IMG/VR virus record: IMGVR_UViG_3300006149_000003
From: a virus
Lineage: Duplodnaviria > Heunggongvirae > Uroviricota > Caudoviricetes
Reading direction: 5' to 3' (one strand)
DNA length: 13,353 nt
Below, in pieces: positions 5,073-11,487 of this stretch. Both the position numbers and the translations under genes were made by a program. Within the stretch, counting starts at the first letter, position 1, and each line of letters begins with the position of its first letter. A model generated the notes under the pieces. That model worked only from the letters and a program-made list of their open reading frames with translations, ran no database searches and was not told the origin of the DNA.

Positions 5073-5087
5073 TGATTTTGTTTGTTA
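5073..5087 (-). repeat. Junction motif copy: TAACAAACAAAATCA
   Basis: 14 of 15 match to the consensus. Lies directly between the Dam stop codon and the next SD. Confidence 0.8.
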
Positions 5088-5515
5088 TTAACGAAAGATA
5101 ACTACCATGCTGGGGAAAGGTGCGGAATTTTTACCATCTCCAAATTTCAACCGGCCACGGATAAAGCGGATTTCCACATTGGGTTTCAAATAGATATAGT
5201 CGTGAAAATATGCCGTATCTGTTCTGGCAGGTATCAGCAGCACCACAGTGGTATTAGGCTGCTTGGCTTCCTCGAAGCATTTCTTCACCCAGTCTTTGAT
5301 AGCCTTGCCATACGGCGGGTTGCAGAAGACTGTCTGCCCCCCCACGACTGTTTCAGTCCATCGTCCGTCTCTGTAAAGTAGTGGGCGCATTTGTGGTTGG
5401 ACTGATTGGCGCAGGGGTCAAGGGTGAAGTGAAACTCCGAATCCAGCTGGTTAAAGAAATCTTGTGGCGTCGCCCAGTCCATAGCTTTGGACGAGAACAT
5501 AACCTCTGTATTCAT
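5088..5515 (-). pseudogene. Phage N6-adenine DNA methyltransferase (phage Dam family), frameshifted at a G7 run (phase-variable, recoded, or a sequencing error)
   Basis: The 5' half (MNTEVMFSSK..WATPQDFF..FTLDPCA..DGLKQSWG) and the 3' half (QTVFCNPPYG..VVLLIPARTDT..IRFIRGRLKFG..APFPS) are in different frames. Adding one G to the 7-C run at 5337-5343 (+ strand) gives a continuous 142-aa ORF. Confidence 0.88.
5337..5343 (-). repeat. G7 homopolymer at the methyltransferase frameshift
   Basis: Coding strand reads TCG T GGGGGGG CAG ACA GTC TTC TGC AAC CCG CCG TAT. Confidence 0.9.
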
Positions 5516-5530
5516 TTGCTTCACCTCTTG

Positions 5531-5546
5531 TGATTTTTTTGTTTTA
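5531..5546 (-). repeat. Degenerate junction motif copy: TAAAACAAAAAAATCA
   Basis: Same position class (ATPase stop, then motif, then SD of the Dam gene), but more degenerate and A-rich. Confidence 0.45.
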
Positions 5547-6458
5547 AGGCTTTTCTTCTAACACAATCTGCTCGACAATGAAATCCGTACATTTGGAGAT
5601 AACCTCGAATACGGGAACTCCGTTTTCAGCAAGATCCAGAGCTTCAAAGTTGTCATCACACCACGATTGCAGAGTATTGCTGTCCATTTCGTATCCGGCG
5701 TATCGAAAGAATTTGTCAGTGAGGGACACAACCTCTTGGCGTGTGAATGGCATTACCCGATAGCTGATGGGGAAGCGACGAACAAGGGCGGGATCAAGCC
5801 TGTCGTATCTGTTTGTAGTGCCGATAATGATGACATTATTGGGTAGAGAATCCATCTCTTGCATAAGTGCGATGGTTACGCGACTCATTTCCGAAACATC
5901 GTGCGAGTCTCCTCGTTTTAATCCAATGGCGTCAATCTCATCAAAGCAAAGGAGGCAGGGAGAGATCTTTGCATATGAGAATACTTTGTTTATGTTGGAT
6001 TGTGTGCCGCCGAGAAGAGAATTGATCAAGCTGGAAAATCGCACATAAACAAACGGCAGATCAGCTTTGTGTGCGATATATCGAGCAAGCTCAGTCTTAC
6101 CTGTACCGCTTTGCCCATAAAGGATTGCTGCCGGCAGATAGGAAATACCAAGCTCCATAAGACGGTTAGACGCTCTGTAGGTGGCGAGGATTTTGTCTGC
6201 AATAGCCTCCTCGCCACTACGTAGGAGAAACTTTCCCATAGGATAGTCCGTGACATCTTCTGCCACCAATAGATCTTTGAGATTGTATGGCAGTTCAATG
6301 AAACTTGTCTTAGCTTCGAGCTTGCGAAGTAACTCTGCCTTGAAACGCTGATCCCGCTGTGCAGTAATATTATTCAAGATAAGTTTGGCATACGCATGGG
6401 CTTTTTTAGGATCATTGTCAACTACGGCACGGAGGAGCATTCGTTCGTTGTCATTCAT
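5544..6458 (-). CDS. AAA+ ATPase (classical AAA clade, IetA-like)
   Basis: Walker A GQSGTGKT, Walker B LLCFDEID, and second region of homology TTNRYDRLDPALVRRF with the arginine finger. Confidence 0.9.
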   Translation of the reverse strand: MNDNERMLLRAVVDNDPKKAHAYAKLILNNITAQRDQRFKAELLRKLEAKTSFIELPYNLKDLLVAEDVTDYPMGKFLLRSGEEAIADKILATYRASNRLMELGISYLPAAILYGQSGTGKTELARYIAHKADLPFVYVRFSSLINSLLGGTQSNINKVFSYAKISPCLLCFDEIDAIGLKRGDSHDVSEMSRVTIALMQEMDSLPNNVIIIGTTNRYDRLDPALVRRFPISYRVMPFTRQEVVSLTDKFFRYAGYEMDSNTLQSWCDDNFEALDLAENGVPVFEVISKCTDFIVEQIVLEEKP

Positions 6459-6474
6459 TTGCTTTCACCCACCC

Positions 6475-7290
6475 CTATACAAAAATGGTTTCGTTTGTGA
6501 CCTGGTTGTTATCGGTGATTTTCACTGTCATGCTGTCAGTGACCGCCATCCGAAGTTTGGTGAGAGAACCATTGAACGGAAGAAATGACGAACAATAGCA
6601 GTCACATACGATATCATCTCCATCAAAATGGAACAAGTTGCCTTGTAAATCCTTATACTCTGCTTTGCGATTGCAAGTGGATAGCTTTGCATAGCGTCCA
6701 GTCCAGTTAGGTGGCGTGATATTGTAGTCCGGATACATTGTGGTAAACGCCTCAAACAGCTCAGGGCACAACTGAGAGAGCTGATGCAAAAACATAGGGA
6801 CTGTTTTCGCCTGATAATCAGTGATTTCTCCACCCATGAGTGCATGAGGTCGATAATCGCAAATACGTTTGATATTCTCGGGTGTCAATACCTCTTGCGG
6901 TACAAAAAGACGGTTGCCACCAAAACCAGGATCATGACACATCAGCCGCTCTCCCTGTAACTCAATATTGATATAAGGTGGAGTAAGAAATACACCGTTA
7001 CCAATACGAGTGATATAGGTGTTGGATGGGTAAGATAATTTGTGATAATGCTCATCCGCCTTGGCCTCTCTATAAAGACGGTGGTACATTTTTGACTGTT
7101 TTGTACCTCCATCAACATGGTTGATACGCCCAAATTCGCATCGTAATCCGAACAAGGTTGTTACACGAAAACATCTCCCTTCTTTATAGGCCGAGCACTC
7201 TTCGGCATGATCACAATAGATGTACTCAGCTCGGAGACGTGCCTTACGGCTACCATCTCCATATAGTCCTACGTTAATCAGCTTTTCCAT
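6475..7290 (-). CDS. Hypothetical protein with a Cys-rich N-terminus (271 aa)
   Basis: GAGGGAG SD and ATG at 7290. Four Cys within residues 26-51. No family recognised. Confidence 0.8.
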   Translation of the reverse strand: MEKLINVGLYGDGSRKARLRAEYIYCDHAEECSAYKEGRCFRVTTLFGLRCEFGRINHVDGGTKQSKMYHRLYREAKADEHYHKLSYPSNTYITRIGNGVFLTPPYINIELQGERLMCHDPGFGGNRLFVPQEVLTPENIKRICDYRPHALMGGEITDYQAKTVPMFLHQLSQLCPELFEAFTTMYPDYNITPPNWTGRYAKLSTCNRKAEYKDLQGNLFHFDGDDIVCDCYCSSFLPFNGSLTKLRMAVTDSMTVKITDNNQVTNETIFV

Positions 7291-7293
7291 TAT

Positions 7294-10894: not shown

Positions 10895-10905
10895 TTGTCC
10901 TCCTC

Positions 10906-11388
10906 TCATGCAAAAGGTATGTTCTCTGCCAGAGGCTTCGGAAGGTGTTTGATACCGGAAAGATAAGGCAGCTTCAGAACTTTCGCCACCAAATATGCCG
11001 TGTAGCCGTCCATCAGCACATTGTTGTCTGCAACTACCACATTCGTGCTGAATTTGCCGGTATGATAGTATTCCATGAAACGCTTGGCGATCTTGTCATC
11101 ACTCGGCCTGCTGCGCTTCATATAGTCCGGAATCACAATGCTGTCCACTGCAACATCGCAGGTTGTACCAACAATCTTGCGGAGCGGGAAAGTAGCTCCA
11201 GAGGCTATCATAAGTTCCCGCACATCTGCATCGTTGACAACAGAGCCGACCACGACACCACATTTTCTGCCTCGCGCGGTATCGCAGGCGACACGGGCGT
11301 TAGGCTTTACCTTATCGGCGAGATGGTCAGGAACTTCAAACCAGTACACTTTCCCACAGTTCCCATGCTTAATCATTGCGACGTTCAT
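10906..11388 (-). CDS. Two-domain protein: small predicted beta-rich N-terminal domain plus a ParB/Srx-like C-terminal domain
   Basis: The C-terminal IVIPDYM..RP..KI....YY..G....VVV..NNVLMDGYTAYLVAK resembles the ParB-N motif (LIDGxxR), but the Arg is replaced by Ala. ATG at 11388 with a GGAGGT SD. Confidence 0.6.
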   Translation of the reverse strand: MNVAMIKHGNCGKVYWFEVPDHLADKVKPNARVACDTARGRKCGVVVGSVVNDADVRELMIASGATFPLRKIVGTTCDVAVDSIVIPDYMKRSRPSDDKIAKRFMEYYHTGKFSTNVVVADNNVLMDGYTAYLVAKVLKLPYLSGIKHLPKPLAENIPFA

Positions 11389-11410
11389 TATAAGCACCTC
11401 CGTTATTCAT

Positions 11411-11425
11411 TGATTTTATTCGTCG
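11411..11425 (-). repeat. Junction motif copy: CGACGAATAAAATCA
   Basis: 11408-11423 matches 8661-8676 at 15 of 16 positions. Lies immediately downstream of the predicted transcription start. Confidence 0.65.
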
Positions 11426-11433
11426 CTATATGT

Positions 11434-11461
11434 AGTATATCACGGATTTCCCGTTTGTCAA
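11434..11461 (-). promoter_or_regulatory. Sigma-A/70-type promoter with an extended -10
   Basis: Minus strand reads TTGACA (11461-11456), 16 nt, then TATACT (11439-11434), with TG-n immediately before the -10. It lies in the largest gap between genes and points into the downstream gene run. Confidence 0.8.
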
Positions 11462-11476
11462 TAGGAAATCCGTGAT
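11439..11476. repeat. Perfect 13-bp inverted repeat enclosing the -35 box
   Basis: ATCACGGATTTCC (11439-11451), 12-nt spacer, GGAAATCCGTGAT (11464-11476). Confidence 0.92.
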
Positions 11477-11487
11477 TTTGTTCGTTA
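11473..11487 (-). repeat. Junction motif copy: TAACGAACAAAATCA
   Basis: Identical to 8664-8678. Lies just after the ASCH-like stop and overlaps the outer arm of the inverted repeat. Confidence 0.85.

Follow-up and report, generated by a model that had tools for sequence, protein, structure and literature searches.

The window analysed here is a 13,353-nucleotide (13.4-kb) stretch of viral DNA corresponding to positions 9662-23014 of G0, a 69.8-kb IMG/VR virus record (IMGVR_UViG_3300006149_000003) estimated to be 52% complete. All its clear genes are on the minus strand, and Pfam and PHROGs matches identify DNA methylases, a radical-SAM protein, an AAA ATPase, FolD and a small helix-turn-helix (HTH) protein among their products. 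A short asymmetric sequence, hereafter the word, recurs at gene junctions and around a promoter in this window, and the present analysis concerns its distribution in G0 and related phages and its probable role as a binding site. Two complete relatives, G1 (117 kb) and G2 (138 kb with terminal repeats), served for comparison.

As the initial annotation reported, exact copies of the word, TAACGAACAAAATCA, lie at 8664..8678 and 11473..11487, a copy with one mismatch (TAACAAACAAAATCA) at 5073..5087 and a copy with three mismatches (CGACGAATAAAATCA) at 11411..11425, all on the minus strand. The copy at 8664-8678 directly follows the TAG stop codon of a 138-aa gene, with the HTH gene starting 19 nt further on, and has orthologues in G1 (99352) and G2 (55806). 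That at 5073-5087 lies between a split Dam-type methylase gene and a 104-aa gene, where it abuts the Shine-Dalgarno sequence; its orthologues are at G1 101811 and G2 53348, and the same junction in another relative, G4, bears G4's own word. The two looser copies that had been proposed, also on the minus strand, do exist and do sit at junctions, in degenerate form. The one at 5531..5546 (TAAAACAAAAAAATCA) separates the AAA ATPase gene from the Dam gene and lies at the 3' margin of a block of three genes missing in G2; the one at 1045..1059 (TACAAACGAAAATCA) marks the start of a 195-aa open reading frame, and a variant contig departs from the window exactly beside it, at 1059/1060. RNA-library contigs from other samples skip or replace the window at 95-1060 and 1352-1623, at 11009 and at 11470, and so represent strain variants; their junctions at 1059/1060 and 11470 directly adjoin word copies.

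The copies at 11473-11487 and 11411-11425 bracket the clear promoter of the window, again as originally described. This sigma-A-type promoter (11434..11461, minus strand), with TTGACA and TATACT boxes 16 nt apart and an extended -10 TG, matches 11 of 12 consensus positions and is the window's best. The upstream copy lies 8 nt past the upstream gene's stop codon and ends 11 nt ahead of the -35 box; its position is retained in G1 and G2, and in G4 is occupied by another word. The downstream copy, with TAG in front, lies ~6-9 nt past the -10 box and starts at about +1 of the transcript, 22 nt ahead of the start codon of a 163-aa gene. The 62-bp spacing between the two copies is kept in G0, G1, G2 and G4. 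A perfect 13-bp inverted repeat, ATCACGGATTTCC / GGAAATCCGTGAT (11439..11476, minus strand; fold z = -4.3), encloses the -35 box, its left arm overlapping the last 4 nt of the word. Because this repeat is conserved independently of the word, being retained in G1, G2 and G4 while the adjoining word changes, it probably serves a dimeric regulator as an operator distinct from the word.

Chance recurrence, already thought unlikely, is excluded in both window and contig. At up to three mismatches the window contains 6 matches against 0.71 expected, a number reached in 0 of 200 shuffles; only the four minus-strand matches are members of the family. At up to two mismatches the whole 69.8-kb contig contains 12 matches, all on the gene strand, and a reversed control pattern has none. 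Alignment of 52 copies from G0, G1 and G2 extended the proposed 15-nt motif: the asymmetric repeat is real, but the full consensus is WAR-YR-ACGAAYAAAATCA, 18 nt, without dyad symmetry and with a weak T-rich stretch upstream. Copies with at most one mismatch to the 13-nt core number 15 in G0 (about half a genome), 16 in G1 and 21 in G2 (both complete). The alignment also qualifies two earlier impressions. Copies had seemed usually to follow a stop codon directly, and TAA or TAG does precede the core in 38 of the 52 (AAA or AAG in the rest), but this triplet belongs to the motif and is a genuine upstream-gene stop codon in only 10. Likewise, the placement just ahead of the next Shine-Dalgarno sequence holds for most copies (gaps of 0-12 nt), but the gap ranges from 0 to 52 nt, and the Shine-Dalgarno sequence itself lies outside the word.

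The rest of the G0 contig encodes, by Pfam and PHROGs, a Tn916-type integrase and excisionase, Pol III alpha, a primase-helicase, NrdD, ThyX, ERF, SSB, a Ro60-like protein and an endolysin. Additional genes in G1 and G2 specify an 871-aa protein with a GADFDSD motif (matching a PHROG of ~850 aa), a weak YonK-like match and a divergent sigma-like protein. By the gene content of G0 and these YonO-like, YonK-like and sigma-like genes, the element is a large temperate SPbeta-like phage of gut Clostridia. Related prophages sit in Clostridia genomes, for example those of Butyricicoccus and Clostridiales bacterium CCNA10, and the sequencing runs that contain window DNA are from mouse gut. A GenBank search for near-identical phages found none.

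The 52 copies are intergenic throughout, save for one orthologous site in a methylase gene, and the majority occupy short gaps ahead of a Shine-Dalgarno sequence; one stands 2 nt ahead of a tRNA gene. An in-frame word lies inside a C5-methylase-like open reading frame of G0, G1 and G2 (G0 contig 40333-40345). Junction copies follow the local gene strand, also where that strand flips in G1 and G2. The uniform orientation originally noted therefore stands for junctions but not everywhere, since in relatives inverted copies abut some -35 boxes.

A scan for strong, correctly oriented, non-coding sigma-A promoters in the early arms of the complete G2 genome found seven. At five of them a word begins 15-26 nt ahead of the start of the -35 box, and in four of the five a further copy begins 36-109 nt past it. 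These five promoters, which match 11-12 of the 12 consensus positions, control a C5 methylase gene, the sigma-like gene, a recombinase-like gene, a tRNA cluster and, in the case of the window's promoter, the 159-aa gene. The two strong promoters without a word are a divergent pair at an ImmR/ImmA-type module. At the tRNA promoter (in G2, G1, G4 and G11, the last two with their own words) the upstream word is inverted and abuts the -35 box, and a promoter at 97.8 kb of G2 likewise has an inverted upstream copy against its -35 box. The sigma-like and recombinase-like genes diverge from a non-coding region of ~1 kb, in which no sign of a sense transcript was found and in which copies lie upstream of both promoters. 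The late structural arm of G2 (1-48 kb) contains no copy at one mismatch or fewer.

The word is confined to one narrow clade (at least 95% primase-helicase identity). Among 2.9 million viral contigs of IMG/VR, just 3 contain a 20-nt form of the pattern, and a search with the primase-helicase recovered 54 related loci (47-100% identity), of which only the G1 and G2 loci (95% identity) have the word. Each sister lineage has instead its own repeated, asymmetric, A/T-rich word: AGCAACTCATAAAATCA in G4 (about 19-24 copies), GCAACAAAATCTCT in G6 and G9 (10-11 copies), AGCAACAAAGTAAA in G11 (about 18-24 copies), GGAATTAGTTAATC in G7 (15-17 copies) with a related word in G8, GACAATAATTT in G5 and ACGAATAAAATT in G10. 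G1 and G2 have the word at orthologous sites and, beyond the clade, other words stand at the same sites. The lineage words share orthologous junctions upstream of the thyX, ERF, RNA-ligase-like, sigma-like, tyrosine-recombinase-like and 89-aa genes, and the promoter boxes next to them are unchanged. In G4 the window's promoter and its 13-bp inverted repeat are conserved and both flanking words have been exchanged with the 62-bp spacing retained. Relatedly, 20 loci recovered via the recombinase-like gene show five differing words, all placed 9 nt ahead of the -35 box in that gene's promoter. In loci L044 (7616-7628) and L068 (7558-7571), each lineage's differing word falls on identical codons of an HD-domain protein; here the protein sequence bends to fit the word. 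In one complete host genome, that of Clostridiales bacterium CCNA10, all 13 copies of the resident lineage's word lie within ~100 kb of prophage (at about 0.99-1.09 Mb), and the remaining 3.5 Mb has none. A second repeated motif, with GGTTAGCAAA (6-18 copies), is conserved in G2, G4, G5, G6, G9 and G11 although their junction words differ, and presumably serves the phage sigma factor as a promoter of its own.

These sites, their geometry, their restriction to phage DNA and their replacement from lineage to lineage are matters of observation, and we consider that they most likely mark a double-stranded DNA site for a phage-encoded reader, with a probability of about 0.8. Recognition at the DNA level is indicated by copies placed ahead of -35 boxes within a divergent non-coding region, by inverted copies at -35 boxes and by the stereotyped flanking of promoters on both sides. 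Since the words are re-coded by lineage and missing from host DNA, conserved host machinery is not the reader; a sequence-specific phage factor that co-evolves with the word would be. The earlier suggestion of a regulon mark read by an element-encoded regulator, comparable to the stoperators of mycobacteriophage L5, is therefore borne out in its outline by a word that is private to the phage, co-oriented with genes, fixed in position at promoters and swapped in sister lineages.

An RNA-level signal, whether a site for an RNA-binding protein or nuclease acting in processing or stabilisation or a translation enhancer, would account for the strict sense orientation of junction copies, for a word that is G-poor, predicted to be unstructured and next to the Shine-Dalgarno sequence, and for its presence at the 5' end of two promoter transcripts. 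The initial annotation listed it as an alternative. It is hard to reconcile with copies upstream of -35 boxes in the divergent non-coding region, with the inverted promoter copies, which neither an RNA signal nor a promoter explains, with a copy before a tRNA gene, which has no ribosome-binding site, or with a Shine-Dalgarno gap that varies from 0 to 52 nt. Moreover, folding around the copies was not significant (z = 0.57 and -0.59, the separate 13-bp inverted repeat excepted), an Rfam search gave no match, and extended pairing with the 16S anti-Shine-Dalgarno sequence was rejected on inspection; we regard an RNA signal as very improbable. A recombination linker, that is, a conserved island at module boundaries for homologous or recombinase-mediated cassette exchange, seems to us the least probable explanation. 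At 3-4 of the 15 G0 copies, the homology block shared with G1 and G2 stops upstream of the word and within 40 nt of it, lineage-specific genes are frequently found immediately upstream of a copy, variant contigs diverge beside copies (11470 and 1059/1060), and the core genes include a conserved small tyrosine recombinase that is apparently active. The original proposal of a recombination point would fit these observations, but breakpoints are no more than weakly enriched (p about 0.06-0.09), homology continues without a break across most copies, and the word lacks the dyad symmetry and crossover spacer of tyrosine-recombinase sites. Lineage-specific words would also hinder exchange between lineages, and promoter geometry is left unexplained.

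Two further explanations keep the site at the DNA level with a different reader. The word could be bound by a positive factor, either a delayed-early activator or an antiterminator of the Q/AlpA type, docking beside promoters and at junctions and enabling read-through of terminator-like hairpins. Activators and DNA-loaded antiterminators typically sit directly upstream of the -35 box; a hairpin and T-run precede several copies (for example at G0 55689, with compensatory stem changes in G1 and G2, and at G2 114826); and the 3' half of the word (TAAAAT/CAAAAT) resembles a -10 hexamer and could cause sigma-dependent pausing. On the other hand, the associated promoters are already at 11-12 of 12 consensus positions, the copies at about +1 occupy repressor positions, and a search for factors of the NusG/RfaH type found none. 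Known Q/AlpA systems have one or a few sites, not 20-30, which counts against an antiterminator, and a positive factor is on balance unlikely. The word could also be the promoter of a phage transcription enzyme, either a single-subunit RNA polymerase of the YonO type or an additional phage sigma factor. Like T7, T3 and SP6 RNA polymerase promoters, the words are lineage-specific, co-oriented and ~20 bp long, and stand at junctions directly before ribosome-binding sites (mostly 0-12 nt before the Shine-Dalgarno sequence, and once 2 nt before a tRNA gene). The relatives do encode the 871-aa YonO-like protein, whose GADFDSD motif is a metal-binding one, and even for SPbeta itself no YonO promoter sequence is known (PMC5467207). 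However, SPbeta YonO transcribes the late operon only, from one start upstream of yonK (PMC5467207), whereas the late arm here has no copy within one mismatch, and the position after the yonO-like gene has a word in G2 and none in G1 or G4. The fixed flanking of host-type promoters and the inverted copies at -35 boxes are not expected of promoters of this kind, and the phage sigma factor already has the GGTTAGCAAA motif, conserved across lineages with differing words. A promoter function is accordingly improbable, by a margin of doubt only slightly smaller than that attached to the RNA signal.

The ImmR/ImmA-type module (G0 contig 57237-58450, opposite strand) encodes an HTH_3 repressor of ~122 aa and a Peptidase_M78 protein, and contains divergent consensus promoters with CACGA-N-TCGTG palindromes; it is likely to be the primary lysis-lysogeny switch. 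The mechanism that we propose adds a second tier to it. The conventional switch has palindromic operators at one divergent promoter pair; the word is found instead at the other strong early promoters and at many junctions. A second-tier repressor would block initiation at early promoters of consensus strength by binding next to the -35 box and a second time at or after +1, and the same repressor on co-oriented intergenic copies would form a directional roadblock that stops read-through, in the manner of stoperators. Protein binding, repression rather than activation and roadblock function are inferred. Promoters at 11-12 of 12 consensus positions need no activation, which favours repression, and the words flank, upstream and at or after +1, exactly those early promoters that lack ImmR-type operators, which fits a repressor. 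The system might also set immunity specificity, because each lineage has altered its word at all sites in concert. The odds that the word serves a repressor with operators and stoperator-like roadblocks seem to us about even. A more far-reaching version, which we advance tentatively and with some doubt, is that of a second, genome-wide immunity layer, in which a hitherto unrecognised core protein, possibly the small one with the tyrosine-recombinase fold, reads the 18-nt word at all early promoters outside the switch and at ~15-20 junctions and silences initiation and read-through. Lineages would have re-coded their sites to escape mutual immunity, and the stoperator principle would have been invented independently outside actinobacteriophages.

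Several results weigh against this interpretation. No word-binding protein emerged from the candidates examined. The window's HTH protein (113 aa; gene at 8312..8653, minus strand), which the initial annotation had put forward as the reader, belongs to the regulated set and is unsupported as the binder: its recognition helix is no more alike among genomes that share the word than among those that differ, and no homologue of the gene was found in G5 or G7, and in G8 only a distant one, although these three all have word systems. The ImmR-like repressor was ruled out as it tracks the CACGA-N-TCGTG palindromes and not the word. The Tn916-type excisionase and integrase are absent from some word-bearing lineages, G6 using a serine integrase. 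A tyrosine-recombinase-family protein discussed below keeps the catalytic R, HxxR, H and Y residues in all lineages, unlike MrpR, the SPbeta master repressor, and comparison with the PDB chains of MrpR, by single sequence and by profile, gave no match at E up to 10. The layout of several junction copies, which follow a hairpin and T-run and abut the Shine-Dalgarno sequence with no host promoter between, is compatible with a promoter. Finally, contigs from four metatranscriptome runs, in which starts, ends and strand cannot be read, cross the copies at 5073 and 8664, showing transcripts or DNA running through them, and break near 11411/11425/11470.

The exclusion of the ImmR-like repressor follows from near-identical recognition helices and palindromes coexisting with differing words. 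The helices of G0, G2 and G4 read SQYSIGRWKN or SQYSIGKWKN, with that of G5 slightly more diverged, and CACGA-N-TCGTG-type palindromes are found in the switch region of all four despite their differing words; a weak match to the word at contig 57374 is an operator of this switch and not a word. G7 and G8 have a differing ImmR recognition helix and GCGATAA-type palindromes. The Tn916-type proteins are limited to the word's clade, where they are 93-94% conserved, and so cannot be the readers elsewhere; G11 has the integrase without the excisionase and without a nearby word, and G7 has a 73-aa copy of the integrase N-domain (73% identical) alongside a very different word. No protein was found to co-vary with the lineage words. 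A triple test comparing G0 and G2, which share a word, with the equally distant G6, which has another, was topped by ERF, a kinase-like protein and proteins of unknown function, with no candidate resembling a DNA binder. G0 lacks the part of the genome that codes for the sigma-like and recombinase-like genes. The proteins encoded at 67-69 kb of G0 are 100% identical to those of G6 despite the differing words. They are a DUF932 protein and an adjoining 119-aa protein (contig 67260-69076), in genomes ~25% different elsewhere, which points to a recent exchange of this segment.

The tyrosine-recombinase-family protein (254-273 aa, Phage_integrase family; L024:5540-6361, plus strand, and orthologues) is a core gene product of the phage family. 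Among the core proteins it is the only one recognisable as DNA-binding that has words on both sides of its own consensus promoter, and it has no recognisable N-terminal core-binding domain. Analogy with MrpR alone makes it an attractive lead as the reader.

Other conserved elements and irregularities were noted in these genomes. In G2, the region 130305-133100 comprises the YonO-like polymerase gene, a hairpin with compensatory stem substitutions among G1, G2 and G4, a conserved A/T-rich block and the weak YonK-like gene, and is a candidate YonO-type late promoter or leader RNA. Between a word and a cysteine desulfurase gene (G0 contig 50584-50660) lies a 77-nt leader with an 11-bp stem, GGAGGCTCAGA / TCTGAGCCTC, conserved in G0, G2, G4, G6 and G11, which may be an attenuator or structured RNA. 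The Dam-type methylase gene of the window (5088-5524, minus strand) is broken into a pair of overlapping frames (5285-5524 and 5088-5390); an additional C after 5336 in one contig from an RNA library shows that the break varies among strains.

If the word does act as a repressor site with roadblocks, large temperate phages with long one-strand operons would have arrived at directional roadblock silencing repeatedly, and it would not be a peculiarity of mycobacteriophages. Each lineage's word could serve as a ready sequence marker of immunity groups among these gut prophages of ~120-140 kb, a family that is widespread but uncultured. Regulated units are marked by the words as well; they include genes for a sigma factor, a recombinase, DNA-metabolism enzymes, methylases and tRNAs. 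The presence of a sister lineage in a bacterium with a complete genome (Clostridiales bacterium CCNA10) makes the system experimentally approachable if the strain is obtainable and culturable.

The repressor of Bacillus phage phi105, a temperate phage of Firmicutes, binds asymmetric 14-bp sites, arranged as direct repeats and some within downstream genes; there are only about six, near the immunity region, and not a genome-wide junction network as here. The operator/stoperator principle is already known, mainly from mycobacteriophages, and a search of the literature found neither this phage family nor its words, the coexistence with an ImmR/ImmA switch or the promoter-bracketing geometry. The start-associated sequences (SAS/ESAS) of Cluster K mycobacteriophages, with which the word was initially compared, are 13-bp asymmetric repeats that lie shortly before gene starts, for the most part in a single orientation, and whose reader is unknown (PMC3203893). 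This analogy was not sustained. SAS include the ribosome-binding site, keep a tight distance to the start codon and are one word across subclusters, whereas the word here excludes the Shine-Dalgarno sequence, is variably spaced, flanks promoters and a tRNA gene and switches by lineage.

SPbeta itself has a 15-bp repeated element, SPBRE, at about 10 promoters, bound by the integrase-fold master repressor MrpR/YopR/SroF (PMC10516654). The phages described here resemble SPbeta in having a YonO-like RNA polymerase, a weak YonK-like match, Pol III alpha and a genome of ~135 kb. They resemble it further in having a ~15-bp element in the promoter regions of many early units (here at five of the seven strong early promoters of G2) and an integrase-fold core protein whose own promoter bears the element. 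They differ in that SPBRE is reported at promoters and not at promoter-less gene junctions, and in that the recombinase-like protein is catalytically intact by its residues and has no sequence match to MrpR chains.

A close likeness in site pattern is to the stoperators of Cluster A mycobacteriophages: over 20 asymmetric sites of 13 bp, found at promoters and in the short gaps between genes, are aligned with the direction of transcription and vary in motif by lineage (PMC9283540, PMC6550527). Like the sites of L5 gp71 and the TipsytheTRex repressor, the words are asymmetric, within a range of 13-18 bp, present at 20-30 per genome at early promoters and in short gaps, oriented with transcription and lineage-dependent. 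The likeness is one of site pattern, and an elongation block at the word would be an extension of it; no homologue of gp71 was found, no search having been aimed at one. Unlike Cluster A, the system described here belongs to an unrelated phage group and host phylum (SPbeta-like, Clostridia), stands beside an additional ImmR/ImmA switch with palindromic operators, has promoter-upstream copies that are sometimes inverted and leaves the late arm free of the word.

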